Source: Rhynchopus sp. YZ270_cl-10
Lineage: Eukaryota
Direction: 5' to 3'
Length of the DNA: 64,000 nt
Assembly (NCBI GenBank): GCA_964035575.1
Contig: OZ037845.1
Span: 1,612,001 to 1,676,000 of the forward strand
Each line of letters begins with the position of its first letter. The first letter of the stretch is position 1. A program made the position numbers and the translations under genes. The notes beneath the pieces were generated by a model. The model saw nothing but the letters and a program-made list of their open reading frames with translations. It searched no databases and was not told where the DNA came from. Below are positions 5,701 through 45,583 of the stretch, piece after piece.

Positions 5701-7431
5701 CTGTACAATGTCCCTCAAAAGACAAAATGCAATAAATACACGGAGAAGAGGCACATCCAGTTCAGGGTCAGGAACTGCAACTACGCGTGTTACTTTGCCC
5801 AGTCGCGGGTATTTTCCATTATTTTAGTTTCGATCTGAAGACCGTACAAAATGGTTCACTGCACACCAAAGTTTGAATCCTCTGATGACTCAAGCGCGTC
5901 AGAATGGTACATTATTCCCAAAAAATGACCCAAAATACCCTATTATGTGATAATGCCGGGTGTGGATGAGAGGGGATGAGAGCGTCAAAAAAAATCGAAT
6001 CTTGCGTCTTTTGAAAGATTTCGCACAAAATCTTCTCATTAAAAAAAAAAATCTTCAAAAAGTCCTAGTGGAAGCCAATTTAGGTGGTTGCGTGGACATA
6101 TATGTCCCCTCTGGTCCTTAAAGGGTTAAATTTATATTCGCTTTGTTTGTACGTTCACGTGCATACTACGATTTGTGTAGTCAATGTGGGTGGTGTAGGT
6201 GTTGAACACGATATGACTTTTTTTTTTGTGTTTGATTGGTTGCACATCCACATTTCCTTAACTTTTGTTCGCGTCGAGGATGCTTTTCATGCACTAGGCC
6301 CAATTTATTACTTTGTTTATAATACCTGACCATTGTGTTGTCCGGCACATGGTTCTTCGTTTTTTTTGTACTTTGCTCATGTTCACGTGCACACTGCGAC
6401 TTGTGAGAGACAGTGTGTGTGATATGTGTTGAATGTGGTATATGACAACCATGCCCTGCTAAAAAGGCCTTTACTCAGGTCACCAGTCAGGAGCAAAACA
6501 CACACGCATGCCATTAGCTTGGCTTGCGGTAACGTTCTCGTGCAGTATGAATTCTACAATGGTGTCGTGCACTGCGTCCGTCACGGATCTGAGTATGAAA
6601 CAATCTTTCTTTGTAGGTATCTGTCCAGGATACAGATTGTTGCTTTCTTTTCACCGTTCTTGAATGAAGACGTGCACTTGATGTGCAGTCACCTTTCAGA
6701 TGTTTTCTCTTCGTCGCTCCATGACATTGGGAGCAAGTGCCTGGCGTGTATTGTGTTGGCATGAACATTTTTTGTGTTCCCACTAACCACCACTCTTGCT
6801 TCAGGTGTCCGAATACTGTGACCACCCAACTTTCCTTGCTTTGTTTTCGTTGCCTCGGTACGCATCCGTTTGCATCTATTATTTTTATTATTATCGCCCC
6901 TCCACCCTCCCAAAACGTTAAGCCGCTTTCGTCGCCTTTTTGCGCAGTGCGTATTTGGCGATGAAACGCAGTTTCCAATGATTCTGCTTTTCTTGCAGAT
7001 GTCTTTCGCTTCTTCTATGCTGCACCCTCCCCTCTCTCCACCCTCCCAGTTGGAAGGCCAACTCGTTTGCGACAAAGCAGGGGAAGTATTGTCTCAGTTG
7101 AATGCAGTAACTTCATCAGCTTCAACTGCGGTGTCAACAGGGACAAGCACTGCCCCTCACCTATTTGTCATTATCATAATGTGTCCCCTTCCCCCTGACG
7201 GCATTTGCAGCAATCCATCATTTCTTGGTTGTTTGCACAAGCACACCGCCGTGAATAATTACTACTGTGCAAAAGAAAAATCAAGAACGCGTCTTTTTGT
7301 TTATTGTTTGCTTGCTTCTCTGCCCACACCCACGTACACCATCCACCCACACAGATTGCTCTTTCGCATAACACAACGACCCTCTTGTCGGGTTGTCCTT
7401 TTCCAACCACTCCAAGTCGTTGCTTTCCATC

Positions 7432-10400: not shown

Positions 10401-10557
10401 GTTGGTCCTTGGTGCTGTGTTCTTGCTGCTGTGTGCTTTGGCTGCTGCGTTCTACAGAAAGAGAGCTTCGGATGGTTCACTTAAGTTGGATGACTGCTGT
10501 CACGAGCTTTACGACGACGTGCCGCAGCAGAGGAATGATGAGTACATGTCAGTTTGA
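7432..10557 (+). CDS. CAP/SCP two-domain mucin-like type I membrane protein (1041 aa)
   Basis: First ATG at 7432 gives a short hydrophobic leader MIVISMLALAG, then 2 CAP domains, APATA and 15-aa TLAPGTTMSPTAMPS repeats, TM segment FPWLPLVLGAVFLLLCALAAAFY and a tail ending YMSV. Confidence 0.92.
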   Translation: MIVISMLALAGCPTTDWEQGILDSHNTWRAATSPPAKDMVRIRWDTNIQANMAKHLRTCNKEWPHSDQNTERKDVGGYELLGENLAYCAGSGCAAKLASGTPGYIGKGWWDEKDDYNYATDTSTGITSHYTQMASSNIYAMGCVAQKCAGPGPYNWQGEWWWFGCQYGERGRAYWSGTKPFDEGTGGLIEPDATVFTKNPGLCKDGGSPAVTPTTAPATPSPVVVTSAPAGAPGGGTPPAGGGGGSTCALTDWEQGILDSHNTWRAATSPPAKDMVRIRWDTNIETNMAKHLRTCNKEWPHSDQNTERKDVGGYELLGENLAYCAGSGCAAKLASGTPGYIGKGWWDEKDDYNYATDTSTGITSHYTQMASSNIYAMGCVAQKCAGPGPYNWQGEWWWFGCQYGERGRAYWSGTKPFDEGTGGLIEPDATVFTKNPGLCKDGGSPAVTTAPAVVTPTTAPTTTAPDTVAPATTPPATAAPATAAPATAAPATAAPATAAPASMVPTTSASLTGAPVTTSAATTSPTTSVPFTPAPGTTSSPTAMPSTLAPGTTSSPTAMPSTLAPGTTMSPTAMPNTLAPGATMSPTPMPSTLAPGTTMPPTAMPSTLAPGTTSSPTAMPSTLAPGTTLSPTAMPNTLAPGDTMSPTAMPSTLAPGTTSSPTAMPSTLAPGTTLSPTAMPSTLAPGTTMSPTAMPNTLAPGTTMSPTAMPNTLAPGATMSPTAMPSTLAPGTTMSPTAMPSTLAPGTTMSPTAMPNTLAPGTTSSPTAMPSTLAPGTTMSPTAMPNTLAPGTTSSPTAMPSTLAPGTTSSPTAMPSTPAPGTTMSPTAMTNTVAPGTTMSQTAMPSTLAPGPTMLPTALPDTLAPGTTSLPTAMPSTLAPGTTLSPTAMPNTLAPGTTSSPTAMPDTLAPGTTMAPTAMTSTLAPGATMAPTAMPDTLAPGSSGTTEPVTVSSDTAAPGTVRTPSPTGVLTAAGSESDDKDDDAKFPWLPLVLGAVFLLLCALAAAFYRKRASDGSLKLDDCCHELYDDVPQQRNDEYMSV
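9030..10255 (+). repeat. 45-bp coding minisatellite (~27 units)
   Basis: Units like gcacctggtaccacgatgtcgccaactgcaatgccaagcacactt encode the mucin stalk. Confidence 0.9.
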
Positions 10558-12639: not shown

Positions 12640-13477
12640 TATGTGGTGTCCCGCGACCAGCCCACAATCGCCCCCCTAGAGCCCACCTGGGCCCACCTGT
12701 GCCCACCTGAACCCAATTTCACCCGATTTCGCCCGATTTCACCCGATTTCACCCGATTTCGCCCGGATTTCAAAAATTCCTTTTTTTGGGTTGGCGGTGG
12801 GGAGCTTGGGCGGGGTTTGACCAAAACCAAGAACTTGGCCATTTCGGCAAAGTGACCCCACCACAGCGCGGACGGATTCCGGAAACGCCAATCGCGGCAT
12901 GTTTTGGAGCCCACTTTTTTTCAGGGAAAATATTTGCTTCCAGATGTCGGAATTTTCCGGAAAATTTCCAGAATTAGGAAACAGCCTGGAAGAGCGGTAC
13001 TGTGTACTGTGTACTGTGTACTGTGTACTGTGTACTGTGTACTGTGTACTGTGTACTGTGTACTGTGTACTGTGTACTGTGTACTGTGTACTGTGTACTG
13101 TGTACTGTGTACTGTGTACTGTGTACTGTGTACTGTGTACTGTGTACTGTGTACTGTGTACTGTGTACTGTGTACTGTGTACTGTGTACTGTGTACTGTG
13201 TACTGTGTACTGTGTACTGTGTACTGTGTACTGTGTACTGTGTACTGTGTACTGTGTACTGTGTACAGTGAGTCACCTAAAGGGGTTCTGCTCAACGAAA
13301 GTGGCCGATTTTTTTTTTAGTTCACCCAGACCCAGCCCGGAAATCTCGAAAAGCGCGGTTTCTGGGTGTTTTACTGGGCCAAACCCTCACAGAAGCCAAA
13401 AAACCCTGTTTTTGCCCGATTTCGCCCGATTTCACCCGATTTCGCCCGGATTTCACCGGGGTTGGGGACACCCCATA
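12640..13477. mobile_element. Nested TIR element carrying a 7-mer satellite
   Basis: Imperfect TIRs tatgtggtgtcccgcgacc / ggttggggacaccccata, with subterminal (ttt)cgcccga/cacccga repeats at both ends. An internal segment recurs at ~34250-34560 and ~59818-59885. TSD uncertain (gta?). Confidence 0.5.
12997..13266. repeat. Perfect (GTACTGT)n microsatellite, ~38 copies
   Basis: Read directly from the sequence. Confidence 0.97.
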
Positions 13478-14710: not shown

Positions 14711-15380
14711 GTGGTCAGTAGCGACACGGTGGGACGAGGTGAACGATTGTGTGTGTGTATTGTGGGCGTGTCCACCATGGTCTTTTATATGTCTTTTATG
14801 TCTTTTGCGTCTTCTATTTTTGGGGTAGACGATTTTGGGGAGGCCTACTCCACCCTCCCACAATGTTAAGCCGCTTTCGTCGCCTTTTTGCGCAGTGCGT
14901 ATTTGGCGATGAAACGCAGTTTCCAATGATTCTGCTTTTCTTGCAGATGTCTTTCGCTTCTTCTATGCTGCACCCTCCCCTCTCTCCACCCTCCCAGTTG
15001 GAAGGCCAACTCGTTTGCGACAAATCAGGGGAAGTATTGTCTCAGTTGAATGCGGTAGCTTCATTTAGCTTCAACTGCGGTGTCAACAGGGACAAACACT
15101 GCCCCTCCCTTATTTGTCATTATCATAACGTGTTCCCTTCCCCCTGACGGCATTTGCAGCAATCCATCATTTCTTGGTTGTTTGCACAAGCACAACGCCG
15201 TGAATAATTACTACTGTGCAAAAGAAAAATCAAGAACGCGTCTTTTTGTTTATTGTTTGCTTGCTTCTCTGCCCACACCCACGTACACCATCCACCCACA
15301 CAGATTGCTCTTTCGCATAACACAACGACCCTCTTGTCGGGTTGTCCTTTTCCAACCACTCCAAGTCGTTGCTTTCCATC

Positions 15381-18300
15381 ATGATTGTGATATCGATGCT
15401 CGCTCTTGCGGGGTGTCCCACTACAGACTGGGAGCAGGGTATCCTTGACTCACACAACACATGGCGTGCAGCAACATCGCCACCTGCAAAGGACATGGTC
15501 CGCATCAGGTGGGACACGAACATCCAAGCCAACATGGCTAAACACCTGCGCACCTGTAACAAGGAATGGCCACACTCCGACCAGAATACAGAGCGCAAAG
15601 ATGTTGGTGGGTATGAGTTGCTTGGCGAGAACCTGGCGTACTGTGCTGGTTCAGGTTGTGCTGCAAAGTTGGCCAGCGGCACTCCTGGGTACATCGGGAA
15701 GGGGTGGTGGGACGAGAAGGATGACTACAACTACGCCACAGACACGTCGACCGGCATCACGTCGCACTACACACAGATGGCGTCCTCGAACATCTACGCA
15801 ATGGGATGTGTGGCACAGAAGTGTGCTGGTCCTGGTCCTTACAACTGGCAGGGAGAGTGGTGGTGGTTCGGCTGTCAGTACGGTGAGCGTGGTCGTGCGT
15901 ACTGGTCTGGCACGAAGCCTTTCGATGAGGGGACAGGTGGTTTGATTGAGCCTGATGCCACTGTGTTCACAAAGAACCCTGGTCTGTGCAAGGATGGCGG
16001 CTCACCTGCTGTGACACCCACAACTGCTCCTGCGACACCTTCACCAGTTGTTGTCACCTCAGCACCAGCAGGTGCACCTGGTGGAGGCACACCACCTGCT
16101 GGTGGAGGTGGTGGCAGCACGTGTGCTTTGACCGACTGGGAGCAGGGTATCCTTGACTCACACAACACATGGCGTGCAGCAACATCGCCACCTGCAAAGG
16201 ACATGGTCCGCATCAGGTGGGACACGAACATCGAGACCAACATGGCTAAACACCTGCGCACCTGTAACAAGGAATGGCCACACTCCGACCAGAATACAGA
16301 GCGCAAAGATGTTGGTGGGTACGAGTTGCTTGGTGAGAACCTGGCGTACTGTGCTGGTTCAGGTTGTGCTGCAAAGCTGGCCAGCGGCACTCCTGGGTAT
16401 ATCGGGAAGGGATGGTGGGACGAGAAGGATGACTACAACTACGCCACAGACACATCGACGGGCATCACGTCGCACTACACACAGATGGCGTCTTCGAACA
16501 TCTACGCAATGGGATGTGTGGCACAGAAGTGTGCTGGTCCTGGTCCTTACAACTGGCAGGGAGAGTGGTGGTGGTTTGGCTGTCAGTACGGTGAGCGTGG
16601 TCGTGCGTACTGGTCTGGCACGAAGCCTTTCGATGAGGGGACAGGTGGTCTGATTGAGCCTGACGCCACTGTGTTCACAAAGAACCCTGGTCTCTGCAAG
16701 AGTGGCGGGTCACCTCCTGTTGTCACACCAACGACAGCACCAACAACCACAGCACCCGCGACAGCAGCACCCGCTACAGTAGCACCTGCGACAGCAGCAC
16801 CTGCAACTGCAGCACCCGCAACAGTATCACCCGCGACAGCAGCACCTGCAACAGGAGCACCTGCAACTGCAGCACCTGCAACAGCAGCACCTGCAACAGG
16901 AGCACCCGCAACAGCAGCACCTGCAACTGCAGCACCCGCAACAGCAGCACCTGCAACAGGAGCACCCGCAACAGCAGCACCTGCAACTGCAGCACCCGCA
17001 ACAGGAGCACCCGCGACAGCAGCACCTGCGACAGTATCACCCGCGACAGCAGCACCTGCAACTGCAGCACCCGCAACAGTATCACCCTCGACAGCAGCAC
17101 CTGCAACAGGAGCACCCGCAACAGCAGCACCTGCAACTGCAGCACCCGCAACAGGAGCACCCGCAACAGCAGCACCTGCAACTGCAGCACCCGCAACAGT
17201 ATCACCCGCGACAGCAGCACCTGCAACAGCAGCACCCGCGACAGCAGCACCTGCAACAGGAGCACCCGCAACAGCAGCACCTGCAACTGCAGCACCCGCA
17301 ACAGGAGCACCCGCAACAGCAGCACCTGCAACTGCAGCACCCGCAACAGTATCACCCGCGACAGCAGCACCTGCAACAGCAGCACCCGCGACAGCAGCAC
17401 CTGCAACAGTAGCTCCTGCAACAGCAGCACCTGCAACAGGAGCACCTGCAACAGCAGCACCCGCGACAGCAGCACCTGCAACAGTAGCACCTGCAACAGT
17501 AGCTCCTGCAACAGCAGCACCTTCAACAGTAGCACCCGCAACAGCAGCACCCGCGACAGCAGCACCTGCAACAGTAGCACCTGCAACAGTAGCTCCTGCA
17601 ACAGCAGCACCTTCAACAGTAGCACCCGCAACAGCAGCACCCGCGACAGCAGCACCTGCAACAGGATCACCTGCAACAGAAACACCCGTGTCAGCAGCGC
17701 TTGCAACAGCGGCACCTTCAACACAAGCACCCGTGACTGCAGCACCTGCAACTGACACACCTATTCCTTTGGTACCGGATACGACAGCACCTACAACATC
17801 ACCAACAGCAATGCCAAGCACTCTTACACCTGGTAGCACTTCATCTCCAACTGCAATGCCAAACACACTTGCGCCTGGTACCACAATGTCTCCAACTGCA
17901 ATGCCAAACACACTTGAACCTGGTACCACAATGTCTCCCACTGCAATGCCAAACACACTTGAACCTGGTACCACGATGTCGCCTACTGCAATGCCAAGCA
18001 CACTTGCACCTGGTGCAACCATGGCTCCGACTGCAATGCCAGCCACACTTGCACCTGGTACTACCATGTCGCCCACTGCAATGCCAGACACACTTGCACC
18101 TGGTACCACAATGTCGCCTACTGCAATGCCAAGCACACTTGCACCTGGTACCACCATGTCGCCTACTGCAATGCCAGACACACTTGCACCTGGTACCACG
18201 ATGTCGCCTACTGCAATGCCAGCCACACTTGCACCTGGTACTACCATGTCGCCCACTGCAATGCCAGACACACTTGCACCTGGTACCACAATGTCGCCTA

Positions 18301-20165
18301 CTGCAATGCCAAGCACACTTGCACCTGGTGCAACCATGGCTCCGACTGCAATGCCAGACACACTTGCGCCTGGTACCACCATGTCGCCCACTGCAATGCC
18401 AGACACACTTGCACCTGGTGCAACCATGGCTCCGACTGCAATGCCAGCCACACTTGCACCTGGTACCACGATGTCGCCTACTGCAATGCCAGCCACACTT
18501 GCACCTGGTACTACCATGTCGCCCACTGCAATGCCAGACACACTTGCACCTGGTGCAACCATGGCTCCGACTGCAATGCCAGCCACACTTGCACCTGGTA
18601 CCACGATGTCGCCCACTGCAATGCCAGACACACTTGCACCTGGTGCAACCATGGCTCCGACTGCAATGCCAGACACACTTGCACCTGGTACCACAATGTC
18701 GCCTACTGCAATGCCAAGCACACTTGCACCTGGTACTACCATGTCGCCCACTGCAATGCCAGACACACTTGCACCTGGTGCAACCATGGCTCCGACTGCA
18801 ATGCCAGCCACACTTGCACCTGGTACCACGATGTCGCCCACTGCAATGCCAGACACACTTGCACCTGGTGCAACCATGGCTCCGACTGCAATGCCAGACA
18901 CACTTGCACCTGGTACTACCATGTCGCCCACTGCAATGCCTAGCACACTTGCACCTGGTTCCACTTCAATGCCCACTGCAATGCCAGACACACTTGCACC
19001 TGGTACCACGATGTCGCCTACTGCAATGCCAGACACACTTGCACCTGGTGCAACCATGGCTCCGACTGCAATGCCAGACACACTTGCACCTGGTACTACC
19101 ATGTCGCCCACTGCAATGCCAGACACACTTGCACCTGGTGCAACCATGGCTCCGACTGCAATGCCTAGCACGCTTGTACCTGGTACCACTTCATCGCCCA
19201 CTGCAATGCCAGACACACTTGCACCTGGTGCAACCATGGCTCCGACTGCAATGCCTAGCACACTTGCACCTGGTTCCACTTCAATGCCCACTGCAATGCC
19301 AAACACACTTGCACCTGGTGCAACCATGGCTCCGACTGCAATGCCTAGCACGCTTGTACCTGGTACCACTTCATCGCCCACTGCAATGCCAGACACACTT
19401 GCACCTGGTGCAACCATGGCTCCGACTGCAATGCCTAGCACACTTGCCCCTGGTACCACTTCAATGCCCACTGCAATGCCAGCCACACTTGCACCTGGTA
19501 CTACCATGTCGCCCACTGCAATGCCAGACACACTTGCACCTGGTGCAACCATGGCTCCGACTGCAATGCCAGACACACTTGCACCTGGTACCACAATGTC
19601 GCCTACTGCAATGCCAAGCACACTTGCACCTGGTACTACCATGTCGCCCACTGCAATGCCAGACACACTTGCACCTGGTGCAACCATGGCTCCGACTGCA
19701 ATGCCTAGCACACTTGCACCTGGTTCCACTTCAATGCCCACTGCAATGCCAAACACACTTGCACCTGGTGCAACCATGGCTCCGACTGCAATGCCTAGCA
19801 CGCTTGTACCTGGTACCACTTCATCGCCCACTGCAATGCCAGACACTATTGCACCTGGTAGCACTGGAACAACAGAACCTGTGACAGTTTCCTCTGACAC
19901 TGCTGCGCCTGGTACTGTGCGGACCCCTTCTCCAACAGAAGTTCTGACTGCCGCAGGGTCGGAGAGTGATGAAGAGGATGATGATGCAAAGTTTCCGTTG
20001 ATACCGTTGATCCTTGGTGCTGTGTTCTTGCTGCTGTGTGTTTTGGCTGCTGCGTACTACAAAACAAAAAGAACTGCTGCTGATGAAGTTACTTTGGATG
20101 ACTGCTATCAAGAGCTCTACGACAATGTGCCTCTGCAGAGGAATGATGAGTACATGTCAGTTTGA
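15381..20165 (+). CDS. CAP/SCP two-domain mucin-like type I membrane protein (1594 aa)
   Basis: N-terminal CAP region nearly identical to the 7432 gene, with greatly expanded APATA and 15-aa repeats, TM segment FPLIPLILGAVFLLLCVLAAAYY and tail YMSV. Confidence 0.92.
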   Translation: MIVISMLALAGCPTTDWEQGILDSHNTWRAATSPPAKDMVRIRWDTNIQANMAKHLRTCNKEWPHSDQNTERKDVGGYELLGENLAYCAGSGCAAKLASGTPGYIGKGWWDEKDDYNYATDTSTGITSHYTQMASSNIYAMGCVAQKCAGPGPYNWQGEWWWFGCQYGERGRAYWSGTKPFDEGTGGLIEPDATVFTKNPGLCKDGGSPAVTPTTAPATPSPVVVTSAPAGAPGGGTPPAGGGGGSTCALTDWEQGILDSHNTWRAATSPPAKDMVRIRWDTNIETNMAKHLRTCNKEWPHSDQNTERKDVGGYELLGENLAYCAGSGCAAKLASGTPGYIGKGWWDEKDDYNYATDTSTGITSHYTQMASSNIYAMGCVAQKCAGPGPYNWQGEWWWFGCQYGERGRAYWSGTKPFDEGTGGLIEPDATVFTKNPGLCKSGGSPPVVTPTTAPTTTAPATAAPATVAPATAAPATAAPATVSPATAAPATGAPATAAPATAAPATGAPATAAPATAAPATAAPATGAPATAAPATAAPATGAPATAAPATVSPATAAPATAAPATVSPSTAAPATGAPATAAPATAAPATGAPATAAPATAAPATVSPATAAPATAAPATAAPATGAPATAAPATAAPATGAPATAAPATAAPATVSPATAAPATAAPATAAPATVAPATAAPATGAPATAAPATAAPATVAPATVAPATAAPSTVAPATAAPATAAPATVAPATVAPATAAPSTVAPATAAPATAAPATGSPATETPVSAALATAAPSTQAPVTAAPATDTPIPLVPDTTAPTTSPTAMPSTLTPGSTSSPTAMPNTLAPGTTMSPTAMPNTLEPGTTMSPTAMPNTLEPGTTMSPTAMPSTLAPGATMAPTAMPATLAPGTTMSPTAMPDTLAPGTTMSPTAMPSTLAPGTTMSPTAMPDTLAPGTTMSPTAMPATLAPGTTMSPTAMPDTLAPGTTMSPTAMPSTLAPGATMAPTAMPDTLAPGTTMSPTAMPDTLAPGATMAPTAMPATLAPGTTMSPTAMPATLAPGTTMSPTAMPDTLAPGATMAPTAMPATLAPGTTMSPTAMPDTLAPGATMAPTAMPDTLAPGTTMSPTAMPSTLAPGTTMSPTAMPDTLAPGATMAPTAMPATLAPGTTMSPTAMPDTLAPGATMAPTAMPDTLAPGTTMSPTAMPSTLAPGSTSMPTAMPDTLAPGTTMSPTAMPDTLAPGATMAPTAMPDTLAPGTTMSPTAMPDTLAPGATMAPTAMPSTLVPGTTSSPTAMPDTLAPGATMAPTAMPSTLAPGSTSMPTAMPNTLAPGATMAPTAMPSTLVPGTTSSPTAMPDTLAPGATMAPTAMPSTLAPGTTSMPTAMPATLAPGTTMSPTAMPDTLAPGATMAPTAMPDTLAPGTTMSPTAMPSTLAPGTTMSPTAMPDTLAPGATMAPTAMPSTLAPGSTSMPTAMPNTLAPGATMAPTAMPSTLVPGTTSSPTAMPDTIAPGSTGTTEPVTVSSDTAAPGTVRTPSPTEVLTAAGSESDEEDDDAKFPLIPLILGAVFLLLCVLAAAYYKTKRTAADEVTLDDCYQELYDNVPLQRNDEYMSV
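16745..17680 (+). repeat. 15-bp coding repeat (APATA), ~60 units
   Basis: gcacctgcaacagca-type units. Confidence 0.9.
17810..19860 (+). repeat. 45-bp coding minisatellite (~45 units)
   Basis: TLAPGTTMSPTAMPD-type units. Confidence 0.9.
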
Positions 20166-24660: not shown

Positions 24661-24832
24661 CAAGGTACAAGGTACAAGGTACAAGGTACAAGGTACAAGG
24701 TACAAGGTACAAGGTACAAGGTACAAGGTACAAGGTACAAGGTACAAGGTACAAGGTACAAGGTACAAGGTACAAGGTACAAGGTACAAGGTACAAGGTA
24801 CAAGGTACAAGGTACAAGGTACAAGGTACAAG
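24661..24832. repeat. Perfect (GTACAAG)n microsatellite, ~24 copies
   Basis: Read directly from the sequence. Confidence 0.97.
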
Positions 24833-24910
24833 CACCATGATTGGAGTTTTATGTTGTGTTTTTATTATTATTTTGTGTTTTTATGTACTGAGCTTTACTG
24901 TTCATCTTTA

Positions 24911-25396
24911 CTGGGGGGGGCCGAATAGTAGACCCCGGGTCCACTATTAGGCGAACCGACGGGTATAAATCGGGGGTCTCAGAAAAAAAAATTTTTTTTT
25001 CCAAGTTGAATAGTAGACCCCCCCTAAATAGTAGACCCCCCCAAAAATTTTTTTCTGTATTTTTACTAAACCCCTCCTGTCGATGAGGCTGATAGGGTGT
25101 GTCAAAATATACTGATTTTTGCTTCTTTGGAAAGATTTGTCACAAAATCTATCCAAAGAAAGAAAAATCAATTTGAAATTTGTAGTTGATCCCCTCTAAA
25201 ATTTTTCCGTGACTTCCGCAAAAAGTCAAAAAAAACGAAAACCTGGGGGGGGTCCACTATTCAACGGAAAAAAAAAAAATTCCCCGGAATTTCTCAGGGG
25301 GGGTCCACTATTCAAAGGAAAAAAAATTTAAAAAAACCCAGAATTCCCAGGGGGGGTCTACTATTCAGGGGGGGTCCACTATTCGCCCCCCCCCAG
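24911..25396. mobile_element. MITE with TA TSD (Tc1/mariner-like)
   Basis: ta|ctggggggggccgaatagtagacccc ... ggggtccactattcgcccccccccag|ta, with multiple subterminal aatagtagacccc motifs. Confidence 0.8.
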
Positions 25397-25624
25397 TAAA
25401 AAAAAAGACCAAAAAAAAAATTTTTTTTGCTTACACGCAGTGTTATTAGAAACTGAACTTGATTAGCCAACGGTAAATTTGTCCTCACGCCTTTTCCTTT
25501 TGAATCATTCCCCTCCCCCAATCAATTATCATGTGCGCCACCCAGGGTAAGAGCCTAAATGGCTTCCTAAAATGGCTGCGGTCAACGAAAAATATTTTTC
25601 GACTACAGCTTCCAAAGCTACACT

Positions 25625-27526
25625 ATGGCACGAAGGGGGAGGACCCGTGTGCGAGGTGGCAGAGGATGCGGAGGTGGACGGATTGTTCGATCCGTTCCGT
25701 TCGTCGCGGGCAACGTTGGGCTCTCGCAGACGAACCCGCCAGTACAGGGTAGCCTAAGACCCTGTGTGTGGGTGCGACGCTGGCGACGAGCGCGAGCGCC
25801 CCCACTTCGCCCTGCTTTCCCGACGGTGATGGGGCCGCCGAAGTACGCGCCGCCTCCGCCGCCGCTTCCAAGACGCGAGCTGATGGACGACGGACCGGAC
25901 ATTGCTATCCTGTACGGAACTGAGGCAACTGTCGTGCTGGACCGCCGGTTTGTGTCTGCGCCTGCGGAACGGGCTGAAGGGGAGTTGGCGAACATTTCGC
26001 GTGCGAGGCTGGATCTTGATGCGCTCATGGCCATGGATACGAAGGGATTGCTCACCGGTATCCTTGATGTCATCAGGTCTCGTGAAGCCTTCACGGCGAA
26101 CCTTACCGATGAGGGTAGGAAAGTCCTGGATTCCTCTGTTCCTCTCAGGAGGGGAACCTCCAGGCACATGCTGCGCCACTGGGGAAACCTGCTGCAGTGG
26201 GGTGTGATGTCTCGGTCCAAGGTGCAGAAGGTGGTGCTTCCCGCCTTCACCGTCCCTAAGAAGGTGCATGGACTGAGGCTTGTGTGCGACGGCCGAAAGC
26301 TGAATCGCTTAATGCGTGCACCCCCGCCAATGCTGTTACCGTCTATACACCAGGTGGTACGGCGATTCATGGACAATGCGTACGTGGTGCAGGCAGACGG
26401 GCGGAGCTGGTTCTACCAGTTCCCGCTGGCGGATGGTGTGGACGACTTCTTCGGAGTGAACCTGTCAGGTGCACGTGGCCCCTTCGTGAGGGCAAAGCTC
26501 AACGTGCTCTGTATGGGCTGGAGTTGGGCGCCGTGCATCGCACACCGCTCGGCGATGGTGTTACTCCCGGAGGATGACGGACTCGCTTGGGTGGACAACT
26601 TCTTTGTCGTAGGCAAAACTCTCCCTGAGGCGGAGAAGCGTTACTCTTCGTTCCTCCGACGAGCAGAGCGAGTGGGCGCCGAACTGAATGACGATGAAGG
26701 AGAGGGTGTGCCCCGTGCAAACTTCTGTGCGTTGGGCCTGGAGTTCGATCTGGCGAGCTCCCCGAGACGGTACCGTGCTGCCCCTGATTGGATTGAGAAG
26801 TGTGTGGATTCTCCCGTACTGAATGAGGTGTTGAAAAACTCATGTACTGCGAGGGACTTTTATAAAGTGTTGGGTGGGTTTGTGTGGTTTTTGTACTGCA
26901 CTAAACGCAGACTTTGTTATTTCCGTGTTTCTCTTTCTTTTTTGCGGCGCACTGCGTCTGTTCTTGCAATTGACCCACAGAAGTGGGATGTTAAACTAGA
27001 AATCCCCCCATCTGTTATATCTGAATTCGCAGGCATCGTGTCTGTGATGAGGAGCAACGACTGGATTGAGGACCAGCCAGAGAGGCCCACCGTGGTAGCG
27101 TGGTCAGACGCTTCCGACCGCGAGTGGGCTGCTTTAATAGAGTCTGAGGTCTTTGAACCGGTCACTCAGGGTGTGTTTTCAAACCCTGAGCAACATCATA
27201 TTTATCTAAAAGAGCTATACGCTGCTTGGCGTGCCGTTAGGCTGGCGGCCGCTGAGAACACAGACCATGAAGTGTCCCTTCAGGTCGATAACGCTGCTGC
27301 TGTGGCGGCGATAAACAAAGGACACAGTAAGAATTTTTTGGCTAATGAGCTGCTGTGTGCCATTTTTGACACTGCAAAGGCTGCCAACATGAGTGTGTCT
27401 GCCTCGTGGGTGGACACCTTAAGTCAGCGGGCTGATGAGTTTACTCGCGGAACAGTGGCCCCCTCGTTGGCATCACTTCCTCCAGTACTCACGGAGTACG
27501 AAAGAGTAGAAGCTATGTTTTGTTAA
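25625..27526 (+). CDS. Reverse transcriptase-RNase H, YR-retrotransposon (DIRS-like) type
   Basis: RT motifs FTVPKK..GLRLVCDGRKLN, ADGRSWFYQFPL, LCMGWSWAP, WVDN, ALGLEFD. RNase H motifs WSDAS, HIYLKEL, VDN, QRADEFTR. Intact 633-aa ORF. Confidence 0.92.
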   Translation: MARRGRTRVRGGRGCGGGRIVRSVPFVAGNVGLSQTNPPVQGSLRPCVWVRRWRRARAPPLRPAFPTVMGPPKYAPPPPPLPRRELMDDGPDIAILYGTEATVVLDRRFVSAPAERAEGELANISRARLDLDALMAMDTKGLLTGILDVIRSREAFTANLTDEGRKVLDSSVPLRRGTSRHMLRHWGNLLQWGVMSRSKVQKVVLPAFTVPKKVHGLRLVCDGRKLNRLMRAPPPMLLPSIHQVVRRFMDNAYVVQADGRSWFYQFPLADGVDDFFGVNLSGARGPFVRAKLNVLCMGWSWAPCIAHRSAMVLLPEDDGLAWVDNFFVVGKTLPEAEKRYSSFLRRAERVGAELNDDEGEGVPRANFCALGLEFDLASSPRRYRAAPDWIEKCVDSPVLNEVLKNSCTARDFYKVLGGFVWFLYCTKRRLCYFRVSLSFLRRTASVLAIDPQKWDVKLEIPPSVISEFAGIVSVMRSNDWIEDQPERPTVVAWSDASDREWAALIESEVFEPVTQGVFSNPEQHHIYLKELYAAWRAVRLAAAENTDHEVSLQVDNAAAVAAINKGHSKNFLANELLCAIFDTAKAANMSVSASWVDTLSQRADEFTRGTVAPSLASLPPVLTEYERVEAMFC

Positions 27527-27539
27527 CTGAAATTTTTAT

Positions 27540-28400
27540 TATGATGTGTGCTGACTATGCTTGGCACTTCATATGCGCTTACGGCGCCCCTTATCCACTC
27601 CTCGTGACGGCGAATGGGTAAACTTTATTTGTAATTTTCATTTTTTGTCTTCTTTGTATTTTATTTTTATTTTTTATCATGTCTGTGCAGAGGCCGATCG
27701 CGTGTCCGTTATTGTCGTGTATTCAGTGATTTGGTTGCCTGTCTTATTGTATGTGCATATGCGCTTATTCGCAATGTCTGCATGGTTCTCTCCTGCAAAG
27801 TGTGGGTTATTCCAGTGGTCAAGGGCCACTGTGACATGGTCAAGGACCGTGTCTTTTGTACCAAGCTGGGTTGTTTTTCAAGTGTGCGCTGCTCGTAGAT
27901 GGACATGGTGTACCTCGCGGTCGAGGATACTATACGGTACCGTAGTGCCCGCTGTCTTGGTGATGGCGCGTGCAAGAAATGTTTATCTTTATGATGTGTG
28001 CTGACTATGCTTGGCACTTCATATGCGCTCACGGCGTCCCCTTATCCAGTGTCCTGTCCTCGTGATAGCGAATGGATATAAACCTTTTATTTTATTTTAT
28101 TTTTTTGTATGATGTGTGCTGACTATGTTTGGTACTTCATATGCGCTCACAGCGCCCTTTATCCAGTGTCCACGTGATACCGAATGGATGCAAACTTTTT
28201 TATTTTTGTTATGATGTGTGCTGACTATGCTTGGTACTTCATATGCGCTTACAGCGCCCTTATCCAGTGTCCACGTGATGCCGAATGGATACAACCCTTT
28301 TTATTTTTGTATGATGTGTGCTTGGCACTTCATATGCGCTTGCAGCGCCCCTTATCCAGTGTCCTGTCCTCGCGATAGCGAATGGATATAAACCTTTTTA
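27540..28400 (+). repeat. Array of five ~95-nt structured units separated by T-tracts
   Basis: Units start at ~27540, 27990, 28108, 28210 and 28310: tatgatgtgtgctgactatgcttggcacttcatatgcgcttacagcgccc(c)ttatcca...cgaatggata..aaac(c)tttt. A partial sixth starts at ~28408. Confidence 0.92.
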
Positions 28401-29049
28401 TTTTTTGGTGAGTGCTGACTTCTCAGTGCCCCATTCGCTTCGGCGTACCTGTCTCTACACTGCTCCCGAGGCGGCGGTAGAACAGTTTTGTTTTGATCAG
28501 TTGTTCGGTTTGTGCAGTTTTGATCAGTACTGGTTCTCCTCTCAATCGGTTTGGATGGACAGGGCCAGTGGGGTTTTTGTACCCATCTAGAGGGTTCTCG
28601 TGGCTGTGCGTTCCGCCCTCCCCCGCAGAAGCTGCGAGGTTGACGGCGGATGCCGTGTTTACAGGTTTCTCTCTTTTCCCACCTTCCCTCCCTTTTCTCC
28701 CCCTTAAACTCCATACTCTGCTACCTTTCCGCTACGCGGTCCCTTTGGGCTATGCTGCGGTCAACGAAAAAAGACTCAGTAGTAGATTAGTGAGGACAAA
28801 TCAAGTGGCAAAATGTTAGTTTAGTTTTTTTTGAGCATTTATTTTGAAATCGATGCTCTCTTTTTCTCTCCCTGTTGTGTACGCTATATGGCACATTCAT
28901 CTTTTTTAAAGTTTTCTTCTTCTTCTCATTTGTTTTCAAAGACATGCATGCTACCCTTAGTAGGGTCACATTCATTCTTTTCAGTGCTTATGCCTAGACA
29001 TTTGCACTATCCATTTATTTAGTTTTTCAAAGGTGACGGTCAACTGTTG

Positions 29050-29176
29050 CCACCTGATTTTTACTCCGCGTATAGGCGCGTAAAGGTGTGTATAGGGCCG
29101 TATAGGTCCGTAAAGGCATATACGGACCGTTCGTACACGCCTTTACGCGCCTATACGCGGGGTAAAAATCAGGTGG
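29050..29176. mobile_element. 127-bp palindromic MITE, 5-bp TSD tgttg
   Basis: ccacctgattttta...taaaaatcaggtgg near-complete fold-back. TSD at 29045-29049 and 29177-29181. Confidence 0.85.
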
Positions 29177-32060: not shown

Positions 32061-32187
32061 CCACCTGATTTTTACCCCGGGTACAGGCGCATAAAGGCGT
32101 GTACAGACGGTCCGTATATGCCTTTACGGACCTATACGGCCCTATACACACCTTTACGCGCCTATACGCGGGGTAAAAATCAGGTAG
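32061..32187. mobile_element. Second copy (inverted) of the 127-bp palindromic MITE, 5-bp TSD atcaa
   Basis: Near reverse complement of 29050-29176. TSD at 32056-32060 and 32188-32192. Confidence 0.85.
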
Positions 32188-35100
32188 ATCAAACAGTTTT
32201 TCGCCATATTTGAATTTGTTTTTTTGTCCCATCTTATCTTCTACTCTAACTTATAGGGCGCTTGTCCCCCCGAGCTCGGGGGGGTATATTCTCCAGAAAA
32301 AAAAAAAATAAACGAAAAAAAAAGGCTGAATTTGAGAGATCAGATCATTCGTGAATTGATACTCACTTTTCGCTCTTTTTTTTTGGAATGATGTGTTTTC
32401 CTGATGCTTATTTATCACAAAAAAAAAAAATACTGTGGGGGGTACATACCAGATTAAATCCCGCATGATGAATAAAAGAACGGAAAAGAGTTAGGGAAGG
32501 TGGTTTCCACCAGTGGGAACTACATCATTTCTAACAATTTATTTCAAAAAAAGGAAAAAGAAAAAATGGCGAATTTTCGCTGAGGGGGAAATAAATGAAA
32601 TATTGCACACAAACAAAGTGTCTGCTTTATTTTGCTATCATGTTTTGTTTTTATTTTTTGTTTTTACTATCAACTTCACTTTCTCTCTTATTTTGGCAAA
32701 CGGGGGAACACAAACGCGAACCCGTAAAAAAATTTTATTGCATTGATGACCTTTTTTTGGGGGTCATACCAAGGTACACTGTCACAAGAGGGCTTTGTGT
32801 TTCAAGTCTTATGTACCTGTATACAATCTCTCTCGTGGTACCCGTATTATGTCAATGAAGTGCTCTCTGGGGTTCGATACCCCGCAGAGAATCAGTGCAT
32901 GCGTCCGTCGATGAACGGTACGTCGTTTTTGCGCTTTCAACTTCTCTCGAAACCTATTTTTTTCTTGTTTTTTGCACCTCCACCCCGAAAAAACAACAAA
33001 AAAAAAAAACTCGAAGTCGGACTGAATGCGAGCCCCGAGAGGCCCGTTCGACCCTTTAATGTGAAAAAGAAAACCGAGGCAGGAGCTTTTAAGTTTTTCT
33101 TATGCATTTCTCCTCATTTTCAAGGTGACTACGCAATTGTTATGATGAGGCTTAAGTTCATCTTATAAACTTTTCTTTCTTTATTTTTGACCATTTTTAT
33201 AACCATGTCTGTTGACAAGGCGTCATCATTCGACACTATCTCCCGCAAGCTAACTTTACCATTTCTAAAAAAAAATGCCCATTCCCCTCCCCTTTCCCCC
33301 AAAAAAAAAAATCAGAGTTATTTTTTGGTTATCCCATGTCAAGGTCACGAAAGTTGAAAGCAGCTGAACACTGATTTATCAAAAAAGAAAAAAATGTGAA
33401 AAATCACAAAAAATGGCTGCATCAATCTTTCAACAAAAGGGGGCTGCAGGGTATTTGTGCTTTCATCCAGATAGCTGGCATCGTACGTGGGTCAGTCGGA
33501 GGTGCCTGCACCAACTACCATTTCATTTCAATCTTCCCACCTATCCCCCCTAACACAATTATACTAGAGTTTTGTTATGTACTTTATGTAATGTCTAAAA
33601 AAATACAGTAGCGACTGTCCATGTGACAGCTTACACTAATACAGCAAATTATTTTGTTTGTGCGTAAAGTGTGTAATAAATATTCTGTGGTGATTATTAT
33701 TACTGCAATACGCTCCCACTGACTACCTGGGCCGTGAAGAGGAAACTTCTTTGAGGCCAAAAAAGGGTGCACAGACCATCTGCGTGATAGCTGGCCATTT
33801 TAAGATTATTCAATAAGAGGTGGTCATCTTTTCAATGATTTCTGGTCTCCTGAATTGAAAATTATTTGAAATTTAGCAAAAAAAAAAAAAAAAAAAAAAA
33901 GGAAAAAAAAAAAACACATGGCATAATTGCAGAGCTCGCGCTAAAGTCCATCCCTCATCCCGGGATTTTTGGGGGTTTTGGTAGGAACGTTTTTTTTTTG
34001 CAGTACGGGGATTTCATTAAGAAACCAGAAGTTCTAATATTGTTGAGTAAGACCACCACATAGTGGGCTTGCATATACATGTGACCCCGCCGTGGAACGC
34101 AATTGGCTCGGAAAGTCAAAAGAAAGAGGAGAAAAAAGAAAAGGAAAAAAAAAAAAAAAAAAGTTGGTTACCGTGCGCCTGCGGCGCTGCCTGTTCCCTT
34201 CCAGTTTCTACAGGCAAACACTTGCCCCCTTTACCTTACACTGACGGGTTTTGACCAAAACCAAGAACTTGTCCATTTCGGCAAATTGACCCCACCACAG
34301 AACGGACGAATTCCGGAAATGCAAATGCCGGTGTTTTCGCGCATTTTCATGTTGCAAGACGTCAGGATCAGGGAGAGAAAATCTGGTTGTGGGATTTACA
34401 TTGGCCCTCTTTACCCACATGGATTTTGACCAAAACCAAAAAAATGGCCATTTCGGCAAAGTGACCCCACCACAGCGCGGACGGATTCCGGAAATTCCAA
34501 TCGCGGTATGTTTTGGGGCTGAAAACCCACTGATTTTCAGGAGAAAAATTGCTTCCAAATCTCGGAATTTTCCGAATTTTCCTGAAAATGACCCTTGTTT
34601 ACGAGTATGGGTTCATATTTTGCGAAAATTTAAGTCACTAAAATTTTGTCCATTTTTCCGTATATACCCCACCACAAGCCGGGATTGGCCCGGAAATGCC
34701 ACAAAACGGGGTTTCCGGGCCTCCCCAGCTAACCTTTTCAAGGAACGTTTTTCCGTACCCGAAATCCATTTTTTCCCCATTTTTCCCCATAATTAGCGCG
34801 ACCACTGCATAATTGGTACAAACAAAACAAACCAAAGCAAACCAATATCCCCTGATACAGCATCTCAAAGCAATGTCTTTTTATTTGGTTTATTATGGCC
34901 CTCGGGATACCCAAAAACCGACCTTCAGGGGCAGGGCGTGTCTAGCTGCGGTCTTCATCGATCCCAGAGCCAAGACATCCACCGATAAGTGCAGTTTGTT
35001 GTCGCCTGCAGTAGACAGCGCTACAGTACTATTTTCTTGTAAAAAAAAAACAAAAAACAAAAATGGCTGGGGATATGAAGAGGCCACGTGGCTTGCCGAG

Positions 35101-42241: not shown

Positions 42242-45200
42242 ATGAACCCTCTCCGTGCTCTCACGCTCCTCACTGTGTATGCGGTGAGCGCCACCAGTCT
42301 TGTAATCCCTACGTACTGCTCGGTCCAGGGACCGCTCTGTGACTTGGAACTGACCGAGTGCAAGCAGGGATACACCTGCACGAAGGACCCCACATGCGCC
42401 CCTGGTGACAAGTGTGAGGCGTGCTGTGTGCTTGACACCCCTGTGCCTGCTCCCACTTTCTGCACCAACCAGGGACCTACCTGTGGACACGGACTCCCCG
42501 ACTGCAAGCTCGGCTACACCTGCACTGTTGACCCCAACTGCCGTGACCTTGAGTGCGAGAGGTGCTGTGTCCTCGACACCCCTGTGCCTGCTCCCACTTT
42601 CTGCACCAACCAGGGACCCACCTGTGGACACGGACTCCCCGACTGCAAGCTCGGATACACCTGCACTGTTGACCCCAACTGCCGCGACCTTGAGTGCGAG
42701 AGATGCTGTGTGCTTGACACCCCTGTGCCTGCTCCCACTTTCTGCACCAACCAGGGACCTACCTGTGGACACGGACTCCCCGACTGCAAGCTCGGCTACA
42801 CCTGCACTGTTGACCCCAACTGCCGCGACCTTGAGTGCGAGAGATGCTGTGTGCTTGACACCCCTGTGCCTGCTCCCACTTTCTGCACCAACCAGGGACC
42901 CACCTGTGGACACGGACTCCCCGACTGCAAGCTCGGCTACACCTGCACTGTTGACCCCAACTGCCGTGACCTTGAGTGCGAGAGGTGCTGTGTCCTCGAC
43001 ACCCCTGTGCCTGCTCCCACTTTCTGCACCAACCAGGGACCCACCTGTGGACACGGACTCCCCGACTGCAAGCTCGGTTACACCTGCACTGTTGACCCCA
43101 ACTGCCGCGACCTTGAGTGCGAGAGGTGCTGTGTGCTTGACACCCCTGTGCCTGCTCCCACTTTCTGCACCAACCAGGGACCCACCTGTGGACACGGACT
43201 CCCCGACTGCAAGCTCGGATACACCTGCACTGTTGACCCCAACTGCCGCGACCTTGAGTGCGAGAGATGCTGTGTGCTTGACACCCCTGTGCCTGCTCCC
43301 ACTTTCTGCACCAACCAGGGACCTACCTGTGGACACGGACTCCCCGACTGCAAGCTCGGCTACACCTGCACTGTTGACCCCAACTGCCGTGACCTTGAGT
43401 GCGAGAGATGCTGTGTGCTTGACACCCCTGTGCCTGCTCCCACTTTCTGCACCAACCAGGGACCCACCTGTGGACACGGACTCCCCGACTGCAAGCTCGG
43501 CTACACCTGCACTGTTGACCCCAACTGCCGTGACCTTGAGTGCGAGAGATGCTGTGTGCTTGACACCCCTGTGCCTGCTCCCACTTTCTGCACCAACCAG
43601 GGACCCACCTGTGGACACGGACTCCCCGACTGCAAGCTCGGCTACACCTGCACTGTTGACCCCAACTGCCGCGACCTTGAGTGCGAGAGGTGCTGTGTGC
43701 TTGACACCCCTGTGCCTGCTCCCACTTTCTGCACCAACCAGGGACCTACCTGTGGACACGGACTCCCCGACTGCAAGCTCGGCTACACCTGCACTGTTGA
43801 CCCCAACTGCCGTGACCTTGAGTGCGAGAGGTGCTGTGTGCTTGACACCCCTGTGCCTGCTCCCACTTTCTGCACCAACCAGGGACCTACCTGTGGACAC
43901 GGACTCCCCGACTGCAAGCTCGGCTACACCTGCACTGTTGACCCCAACTGCCGTGACCTTGAGTGCGAGAGGTGCTGTGTCCTCGACACCCCTGTGCCTG
44001 CTCCCACTTTCTGCACCAACCAGGGACCCACCTGTGGACACGGACTCCCCGACTGCAAGCTCGGCTACACCTGCACTGTTGACCCCAACTGCCGTGACCT
44101 TGAGTGCGAGAGATGCTGTGTGCTTGACACCCCTGTGCCTGCTCCCACTTTCTGCACCAACCAGGGACCTACCTGTGGACACGGACTCCCCGACTGCAAG
44201 CTCGGATACACCTGCACTGTTGACCCCAACTGCCGCGACCTTGAGTGCGAGAGATGCTGTGTGCTTGACACCCCTGTGCCTGCTCCCACTTTCTGCACCA
44301 ACCAGGGACCCACCTGTGGACACGGACTCCCCGACTGCAAGCTCGGCTACACCTGCACTGTTGACCCCAACTGCCGCGACCTTGAGTGCGAGAGATGCTG
44401 TGTGCTTGACACCCCTGTGCCTGCTCCCACTTTCTGCACCAACCAGGGACCCACCTGTGGACACGGACTCCCCGACTGCAAGCTCGGCTACACCTGCACT
44501 GTTGACCCCAACTGCCGTGACCTTGAGTGCGAGAGGTGCTGTGTCCTCGACACCCCTGTGCCTGCTCCCACTTTCTGCACCAACCAGGGACCCACCTGTG
44601 GACACGGACTCCCCGACTGCAAGCTCGGCTACACCTGCACTGTTGACCCCAACTGCCGTGACCTTGAGTGCGAGAGATGCTGTGTGCTTGACACCCCTGT
44701 GCCTGCTCCCACTTTCTGCACCAACCAGGGACCTACCTGTGGACACGGACTCCCCGACTGCAAGCTCGGCTACACCTGCACTGTTGACCCCAACTGCCGC
44801 GACCTTGAGTGCGAGAGGTGCTGTGTGCTTGACACCCCTGTGCCTGCTCCCACTTTCTGCACCAACCAGGGACCTACCTGTGGACACGGACTCCCCGACT
44901 GCAAGCTCGGTTACACCTGCACTGTTGACCCCAACTGCCGCGACCTTGAGTGCGAGAGGTGCTGTGTGCTTGACACCCCTGTGCCTGCTCCCACTTTCTG
45001 CACCAACCAGGGACCTACCTGTGGACACGGACTCCCCGACTGCAAGCTCGGCTACACCTGCACTGTTGACCCCAACTGCCGCGACCTTGAGTGCGAGAGG
45101 TGCTGTGTGCTTGACACCCCTGTGCCTGCTCCCACCTTCTGTTCCGCTCAGGGACCTACCTGCGACGTGGAACTGACCGAGTGCAAGCAGGGCTACACCT

Positions 45201-45583
45201 GCACGAAGGACCCCACCTGTGCCCCTGGCGACAAGTGTGAGGCGTGCTGTGTGCGTGACGACGTGCCCGCACCCACCACCTACTGCAGCAACCAGGGCCC
45301 GACCTGTGGTCTGTCGCACGACGCATGCAAGGAGGGCTACACCTGCACTGCCGACCCCACCTGCGACAAGAGCCCTGAGCAGTGTGAGAGCTGCTGTGTG
45401 AGGGACACGACCACGCCGTGCTGTGCTGCTGTGCCGACGTGCAAGGAGGGCTTCAAGCAGAAGAAGCGCCCTGTGTGCCACTCGCAGAACCCTGAGCGCT
45501 GCTACGTGACCGAGCTGTGCTGCACGAAGATTGCGTGCAAGCACATTAAGCTCAGCAGCACCGACGCTGACGATGAGGAGTAG
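42242..45583 (+). CDS. Secreted cysteine-rich tandem-repeat protein
   Basis: Signal-peptide-like MNPLRALTLLTVYAVSATS, ~22 eight-Cys modules and a Cys-rich C-terminus ending DADDEE. No TM segment. Variation among repeats is synonymous in this frame. Confidence 0.88.
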   Translation: MNPLRALTLLTVYAVSATSLVIPTYCSVQGPLCDLELTECKQGYTCTKDPTCAPGDKCEACCVLDTPVPAPTFCTNQGPTCGHGLPDCKLGYTCTVDPNCRDLECERCCVLDTPVPAPTFCTNQGPTCGHGLPDCKLGYTCTVDPNCRDLECERCCVLDTPVPAPTFCTNQGPTCGHGLPDCKLGYTCTVDPNCRDLECERCCVLDTPVPAPTFCTNQGPTCGHGLPDCKLGYTCTVDPNCRDLECERCCVLDTPVPAPTFCTNQGPTCGHGLPDCKLGYTCTVDPNCRDLECERCCVLDTPVPAPTFCTNQGPTCGHGLPDCKLGYTCTVDPNCRDLECERCCVLDTPVPAPTFCTNQGPTCGHGLPDCKLGYTCTVDPNCRDLECERCCVLDTPVPAPTFCTNQGPTCGHGLPDCKLGYTCTVDPNCRDLECERCCVLDTPVPAPTFCTNQGPTCGHGLPDCKLGYTCTVDPNCRDLECERCCVLDTPVPAPTFCTNQGPTCGHGLPDCKLGYTCTVDPNCRDLECERCCVLDTPVPAPTFCTNQGPTCGHGLPDCKLGYTCTVDPNCRDLECERCCVLDTPVPAPTFCTNQGPTCGHGLPDCKLGYTCTVDPNCRDLECERCCVLDTPVPAPTFCTNQGPTCGHGLPDCKLGYTCTVDPNCRDLECERCCVLDTPVPAPTFCTNQGPTCGHGLPDCKLGYTCTVDPNCRDLECERCCVLDTPVPAPTFCTNQGPTCGHGLPDCKLGYTCTVDPNCRDLECERCCVLDTPVPAPTFCTNQGPTCGHGLPDCKLGYTCTVDPNCRDLECERCCVLDTPVPAPTFCTNQGPTCGHGLPDCKLGYTCTVDPNCRDLECERCCVLDTPVPAPTFCTNQGPTCGHGLPDCKLGYTCTVDPNCRDLECERCCVLDTPVPAPTFCTNQGPTCGHGLPDCKLGYTCTVDPNCRDLECERCCVLDTPVPAPTFCSAQGPTCDVELTECKQGYTCTKDPTCAPGDKCEACCVRDDVPAPTTYCSNQGPTCGLSHDACKEGYTCTADPTCDKSPEQCESCCVRDTTTPCCAAVPTCKEGFKQKKRPVCHSQNPERCYVTELCCTKIACKHIKLSSTDADDEE
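42458..45136 (+). repeat. 141-bp coding tandem repeat, 19 copies
   Basis: FCTNQGPTCGHGLPDCKLGYTCTVDPNCRDLECERCCVLDTPVPAPT x19 (2679/141 = 19). Confidence 0.95.

Follow-up and report, generated by a model that had tools for sequence, protein, structure and literature searches.

The six-copy repeat array at 27540-28491 of the window (the whole stretch of 64,000 nt of DNA that was analysed) lies in the 3′ non-coding part of an apparently mobile element that encodes a reverse transcriptase (RT). From its sequence, this 3.18-kb element is best read as a recombinase-less, RT-only derivative of VIPER/TATE-like elements with an amplified structured 3′ module. The array is real, and its predicted fold is probably selected. 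The earlier note on this DNA had overlooked both the surrounding RT element and the diverged sixth unit (28400-28491), and had taken the array for a repeated functional RNA of about 95 nt rather than a neutral minisatellite. The functional part of this claim gains modest support from the five helices of unit 6 and from seven of seven variable stem positions, while the discrete RNA of that length is not supported, the units occupying the 3′ non-coding part of a larger element.

The RT element and its boundaries

The left boundary of the unit is formed by an 18-bp direct repeat at 25575-25592 (+ strand) and the right boundary by its second, exactly matching copy at 28754-28771 (+). The window holds two exact matches of this repeat, with 0.10 expected by chance. 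The left flank (25430-25592, left edge approximate) and the right flank (28754-28905, right edge approximate) are two parts of a repeat found at many genomic places. Each has matches in many diverged contigs. In some contigs the two flanks are joined across the unit, mostly in X6 and in one case also in X1; two X8 contigs carry a left-flank-like stretch ahead of the right core. Together with the high summed depth in X1 and X6, values that are not taken as copy number or expression, these matches suggest that the left flank is a target or terminal repeat. The loose ends of X6 and X7 contigs coincide with GATC, TTAA or CTNAG sites; they were treated as probable library chimeras. Each copy of the 18-bp repeat also appears, by eye, to begin a hairpin (25575-25608 and 28754-28779) whose differing 3′ arms still pair, and the left copy recurs in the fold of the 3′ region; these hairpins are a possible recombination-site structure.

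The left repeat is followed by a leader of 32 nt (25593-25624, +) with a pyrimidine run and an AG at 25607-25608, a possible trans-splice acceptor. An intact ORF of 633 amino acids (25625-27526, +) is identified by its motifs and homologues as an RT-RNase H: it has WVDN at the YxDD position and the RNase H motifs WSDAS, KEL and VDN, and its Arg/Gly-rich N-terminus is common to a sister family (family B, see below). Pfam at E 0.01 gave no match for this RT copy; the search for homologues returned 38 at E <= 0.001, with the motifs aligned and PF00078 in many of them. The named relatives are from Diplonema papillatum (38-52% identity), which makes a euglenozoan host, a diplonemid or something close to one, probable. 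Two RT relatives, P0013 and P0032, carry PF00589. The window is eukaryotic, with a split beta-adaptin gene and CAP-domain genes.

No tyrosine recombinase was found, since tblastn with the YR-bearing P0013 and P0032 matches only the RT part of the window. For a gag-like ORF1, just 32 nt separate the left repeat from the RT start, and 24928-25618 contains no ORF of at least 100 amino acids. A1-B1-A2-B2 split repeats were not found in 25400-28960, which yielded the 18-bp direct repeat only. VIPER and TATE are described as having three ORFs and split direct repeats (PMC6681497), and TATE-like ORFs have been reported from D. papillatum (PMC10161547). The present element resembles them in its RT-RNase H ORF, whose relatives follow a recombinase in the order ORF1-YR-RT, but it is without the recombinase, the gag-like ORF and the split repeats, and it has 1.2 kb of hairpins, including the six-unit array, behind the ORF. 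As recombinase, room for gag and split repeats are all missing, it would be a derivative of VIPER/TATE and not a full member, the VIPER/TATE-like label itself being one that we infer from these likenesses. SIRE, the non-coding A2+B2 piece of VIPER (PMC6681497), offers a partial parallel: the flanks here seem to occur joined, in many copies and without the RT unit, whereas SIRE has no RT insert. DIRS1-like elements have inverted terminal repeats with internal complementary regions (PMC3266345); in contrast, inverted terminal repeats do not rise above shuffle level in this element (33 for flank against reversed flank; shuffles with a mean of 25 and a maximum of 43), and the comparison of its ends gave one 12-bp inverted match and no ICR-like match.

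Anatomy of the array

The five related units of about 95 bases described earlier are real; they start at 27540, 27990, 28108, 28210 and 28310 on the + strand, each preceded by a U-rich linker. Unit 1 (27540-27623) begins 13 nt past the RT stop codon and has a damaged H3 inner stem, in which 2 nt of the inner 5′ arm are missing and two of the five inner pairs are lost. Units 2 (27990-28084), 3 (28108-28196), 4 (28210-28297) and 5 (28310-28394) stand head to tail, unit 1 lying about 360 nt upstream. Unit 2 has a 5-nt internal duplication in H3, and a 9-nt deletion shortens H1 of unit 5, where a hairpin remains. The AAAC said to end each unit is not found in unit 4, which ends in ACAACCC. With the diverged unit 6 (28400-28491, +), recognised by covariance model, fold and identity, the array comprises six copies. 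Tandem Repeats Finder reports a period of 102 with 3.1 copies and 85% matches at 28095-28405; head-to-tail units of 10-100 bp give the array the form of a minisatellite, which says nothing on neutrality.

The spacer between units 1 and 2 (27626-27985, +) contains a U-rich linker, twin AAG-loop hairpins and probable decayed remnants of units, H1/H2-like near 27754-27767 and H3-like near 27949-27978 (both +). These remnants are weak model matches (E 1.8, 7.3 and 9.2, individually not significant) and suggest older rounds of duplication. The twin hairpins (27813-27831 and 27833-27853, +), seen in the fold of the 3′ region, have a common 9-nt core and differing outer stems, with 8-9 pairs kept, and constitute a second small duplicated module in this part of the element. 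Downstream of unit 6, the segment 28492-28753 (+) contains further hairpins and a pyrimidine tract (about 28666-28706).

Over the array, contigs from four public runs agree with the window and show no variant letters at the 1% level: an X1 contig matches 28000-28500 with 0 differences, and the X8 contigs reach 28195 only. This agreement indicates that the array is no assembly error, with the proviso that one of the four runs may itself be the source of the window's sequence.

Predicted fold of units 1 to 5

RNAalifold analysis of units 1-4 returns the three hairpins that had been paired by hand. H1 consists of 5 bp, a 3x1 internal loop and 7 bp, H2 of 5 bp, and H3 of 6 bp, a CGAA bulge and 5 bp. 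Folded individually, units 1-5 give H1-H3 except for H3 of units 1 and 4, the own fold of unit 4 containing 17 of the 28 pairs; the folding z-scores are weak (-1.94, -1.54, -1.33, -1.33 and -2.75 for units 1 to 5). That every unit shares one fold thus holds for the most part, the exceptions being the damaged inner stem of unit 1 and the 9 nt missing from H1 of unit 5. In each of the six units, folding favours the + over the - strand. When the whole 3′ region is folded, its 1.2 kb becomes a chain of hairpins in which adjacent units often pair with one another instead.

The inner-stem variants reported before, ctgtc/gatag in units 2 and 5, gtgtc/gatac in unit 3 and gtgtc/gatgc in unit 4, are confirmed. 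Among the 28 pairs of units 1-4, 21 are invariant, six vary on one side and one on both. The changes among units 1-5 are mostly transitions, and nearly all of the variation is one-sided G-U change. The claim that changes fall in loops or preserve pairing stands by hand count, all seven variable stem positions of units 1-5 keeping the pair where a partner exists; it gains nothing from covariation in units 1-4, which 243 of 500 shuffles match. As 59% of random transitions in these stems keep pairing (0.59 expected per transition), the chance that all seven positions do so is roughly 0.025.

In each of the six units the H2 loop could alternatively pair with the region of the H3 loop, with duplex energies of -4.4 to -14.7 kcal/mol; the two substitutions private to unit 5 are partners in this pairing, a coincidence noticed after the fact. 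Of the 514 A/T position pairs of unit 2, 16 belong to helices at least 6 bp long. By eye, the 5′ U run and the 3′ AAAC of units 1-5 can pair into a closing stem, which was rejected, being absent from the consensus fold and from unit 6. Kissing through self-complementary H3 loops was likewise rejected, its register differing among the units.

Unit 6 and probable selection on the fold

In a search of the 64 kb with a covariance model of units 1-4, unit 6 is the top match after unit 5 (20.7 bits, E 0.033), and the match ranking below it reaches only 12.0 bits. A sequence-only model gives unit 6 6.6 bits, as against 20.7 with the structure model. It has 54-61 identical letters of 92 with units 1-5, and at most 2 of 1000 shuffles attain its likeness to units 1-4. 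Folded alone, its + strand forms H1-H3, and its - strand shows no notable fold. H1 keeps the 3x1 internal loop, H2 is a UUCG hairpin, and H3 is without CGAA. Its minimum-energy fold contains 22 of the 28 reference pairs and all five helices. Compared with unit 2, 19 stem positions have changed and 23 of 28 pairs are retained, three of them through double-sided changes, and the five lost pairs are all at helix ends.

Copies of units 2 and 3 were mutated neutrally under 18 settings, with two positions of slack granted to the mutated copies. Between 3 and 35 of 700 copies (0.4-5%) retained 22 pairs, and 0 to 17 of 700 (at most 2.4%) retained five helices. The pair-count test for unit 6 is less steady and depends on the share of transitions, with P of 0.006-0.013 at a share of 0.6, 0.07-0.10 at 0.8 and 0.4-0.45 at 1.0. 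Alignment A7 contains seven double-sided pairs, but it was fitted to the model. Because the hand mapping of unit 6 was guided by the expected structure, its retention of the fold is read as modest support, with P of about 0.01-0.05, for selection on the predicted + strand fold.

The strongest competitor of a selected fold is a neutral minisatellite within a young retroelement, whose fold would be incidental and in which tolerance of G-U pairs mimics structure-preserving variation. The 59% of random transitions that keep a pair, the weak z-scores and the shuffle-level covariation of units 1-4 are all in keeping with it, and Diplonema has tandem gene-end copies that are absent from mature mRNA, as described in PMC10161547. 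However, 23-36 substitutions have left the five helices of unit 6 in place, an outcome seen in at most 2.4% of neutral copies, its H1 retains the 3x1 loop, and a hairpin survives the deletion in unit 5. We consider a neutral array unlikely, though it deserves serious weight. If the fold were neutral, the element would still be an undescribed derivative, lacking a recombinase, within a known class.

Copies, sister family and distant relatives

A full-length RT of family A, the cluster to which the RT of this element belongs, is present on 14 contigs and one of family B on 24 (contigs may span more than one assembly), which speaks for mobility. The two families have about 83% nucleotide and 85-87% amino-acid identity, a relation that fits purifying selection. 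Family B has the same start codon region as family A, and its X1 contig begins at about the same left boundary. Past the stop codon it shows a similar U-rich linker and, at the same distance, a unit-like start of which 12 letters are visible, with one stem A-to-G change and two bulge changes relative to the H1 start. Since 10 of these 12 letters also match 27962-27971, their assignment to a unit rests on position; among the contigs at 80% likeness, no family B unit aligned to the array.

Related RTs were found at 32 metagenome loci, with 24-47% amino-acid identity to this RT. The recombinase adjoins the RT in 10 of the 32, many loci are ORF1-YR-RT units of 4.3-4.7 kb, and pyrimidine tracts with an AG precede ORF1. 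For 12 of the 32, on contigs of 3.6-4.7 kb, the first bases recur at the very end of the contig (L005, L006, L009, L010, L012, L013, L016, L018, L023, L024, L027 and L028); these contigs may represent complete YR retroelements with little intergenic sequence, either circular or assembled from tandem arrays that collapsed. A tree places families A and B in one clade (SH-aLRT 100) nested among YR-bearing relatives; it is a quick search over homology-search matches, with no named VIPER/TATE references. With default filters, the unit model matched none of the 32 loci, and the module is thus no general need of this RT clade. Rfam found nothing relevant in the 32 loci, the RT alignment found no relative among viral contigs, and the exact unit motif gave 0 matches in viral and prokaryote contigs.

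A possible role in loading the RT

The proposal that we favour, with belief and doubt evenly balanced, is that the 3′ modules are a cis-acting signal loading the element RNA onto the RT, or onto Gag from complete relatives. The + strand would be transcribed through the ORF and the array, and the RT would bind the modules in cis, more modules providing more binding sites. The 3.18-kb unit would form a DNA circle, and the tyrosine recombinase of a complete relative would insert this circle at the 18-bp core of the multi-copy repeat, leaving the core on either side. Closing the circle would bring the pyrimidine tract at about 28666-28706 ahead of the AG at 25607 and of the start codon, an order similar to that of pyrimidine tract, AG and ORF1 in the distant relatives. 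The U-rich linkers may have allowed the array to grow through slippage or template switching between them, recently for units 2-5 and long ago for unit 6.

The position of unit 1 right behind the RT stop, the copy numbers, the YR-bearing relatives and the fold retained by unit 6 speak for this reading; the shuffle-level covariation of units 1-4, the damaged H3 of unit 1 and the absence of the module from the 32 distant relatives speak against it. The flank-joining contigs and the 12 end-repeating relatives argue for the circle, and this support for circle and insertion is weakened by the origin of most flank joints in X6, with its probable chimeras.

We know of no account of how RTs of the DIRS order, and especially VIPER-like ones, choose and prime their RNA. 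The DIRS replication model concerns terminal repeats (PMC3266345), and the word "primer" is absent from PMC6681497. Elsewhere, LINE RTs are reported to recognise 3′ stem-loops (PMC5814959), and the RNase H of VIPER-like elements groups with hepadnaviral RNase H (PMC6681497), a link that gives the element wider interest. The likeness to LINE 3′ stem-loops and to hepadnaviral epsilon is a functional analogy only, in that the element's RNA would itself carry the bulged stem-loop proposed to load the RT. Epsilon is a bulged stem-loop onto which the hepadnaviral RT loads, whereas here there are six three-hairpin copies, no endonuclease and no recognised terminal-protein domain. TOC1 and kangaroo-1, PAT-like elements of green algae, have internal tandem repeats of 76 bp and 89 bp, and would thus be arrays of similar unit size inside DIRS-order elements; we know of no fold or function reported for these arrays, and a literature search did not confirm the repeats. 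Within the search listings and article passages that it covered, the literature search found no structured array or ribozyme in a VIPER/TATE-like element and no RT-only form.

A bolder extension, which we hold to be rather unlikely, is that of a satellite retroelement cut down to its RT from a VIPER/TATE-like ancestor, its gag replaced by the Arg/Gly-rich RT arm and the module array and its recombinase borrowed. Epsilon-like or catalytic modules would select and prime the template, and the borrowed recombinase would insert the circle site-specifically into a non-coding repeat. Were this true, the module would be, as far as we know, the first RNA signal to be defined for an RT of the DIRS order. 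In any case the element is a small test system for RNA choice by such RTs, being 3.2 kb long with a single intact ORF, a six-unit structured module, near-identical copies and a sister family.

Other possible roles of the structured array

The fold may instead be selected for control of the mRNA (stability, 3′-end formation, binding of host proteins to the RNA or escape from silencing) and not for reverse transcription. The location behind the stop codon, the U-rich linkers and the organisation of the whole 1.2-kb 3′ part as a chain of hairpins fit such a role; D. papillatum has RNAi genes, and its long 3′-UTRs are thought to bind regulatory proteins (PMC10161547). We find this doubtful; nothing observed speaks directly against it, but mRNA control alone leaves unexplained why the module is present in the lineage that has lost gag and recombinase.

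Less probable again is that each unit is a discrete RNA of about 95 nt, or a self-cleaving ribozyme of a class not yet described that would cut the element from longer transcripts. The units are bounded by U runs, and the H2-loop/H3-loop pairing described above, with its partner changes in unit 5, is a lead towards a ribozyme or switch. Catalytic cores keep their unpaired nucleotides, but few of these are common to units 1-5 and unit 6, and several cuts behind the ORF are hard to reconcile with copying of the whole array. The Infernal check that the earlier note had proposed gave 0 Rfam matches at gathering score in the window and hence no ribozyme; in 25400-29100, Rfam returned two unrelated matches (E 1.2 and 2.4). 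Neither Rfam nor ARAGORN matched a snoRNA or a tRNA-derived RNA, and a PDB sequence search gave five matches (E 0.17-0.7), none relevant. A hammerhead, whose core motifs are CUGANGA and GAAA, was rejected: this core does not occur within the units, one CUGANGA-like match lying near 28640 (+) and none on the - strand.

It is very improbable that the structure acts in single-stranded + DNA, as a replication or recombination intermediate, and not in RNA. The element would pass through cDNA, and the strand bias is equal for + DNA and RNA; the many G-U/G-T pairs and the UUCG loop of unit 6 nevertheless suit RNA better than DNA.

The earlier note had also seen a likeness to the HDV ribozyme, and this comes down to two short motifs. 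All of units 1-5 carry UCCHCGY, a heptamer resembling the L3 motif, followed by CGAA ahead of a strand that pairs like P2. HDV-like ribozymes form a nested double pseudoknot in which P1 stacks with P1.1 and P4 and P2 stacks on P3, and they cleave at the first nucleotide of P1 (PMC4908430). In all five units exactly 5 nt separate the L3-like motif from CGAA, a gap that would have to accommodate the 3′ strands of P3, P1 and P1.1, so that the HDV topology cannot be built. The L3-like loop of units 1-5 is closed by a 5-bp stem, which is not P3 geometry, and CGAA is absent from unit 6. An HDV descriptor run on both strands of 25400-29000 gave 0 strict matches, and the best-scoring loose matches shown used U-rich linkers as L3. 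Compared with L1TcRz, CPEB3 and R2, the units share L3-like and J4/2-like motifs and a P2-like helix but are without P1, P1.1 and P4, and they follow the ORF, in contrast to the 5′-terminal L1TcRz. Membership of the HDV-like family is refuted for an intact cis ribozyme, as judged from sequence, and descent of the units from such ribozymes is barely credible in spite of the two motifs and of the HDV-like ribozymes that occur in trypanosomatid retroelements (PMC5814959).

Other features of the window

Long ORFs occupy 12-2693, 7393-10557 and 15342-20165, with CAP domains in the first two and mucin-like repeats of 15, 30 and 45 bp in the last two. At 42421-45204, a 141-bp unit is repeated 19.7 times at 97% identity within long ORFs, and Pfam gave no match for the 1136-aa ORF of this region. 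Near-perfect 7-bp satellites are located at 12997-13270 (39 copies) and 24661-24832 (25 copies). Directly left of the flank repeat lies a MITE-like element (24910-25398) with G-rich terminal inverted repeats and internal repeats. Two related inverted-repeat elements with arms of about 43-78 bp, at 29026-29176 and 32061-32214, may be separate MITEs or mark the two ends of a single element of 3.2 kb.
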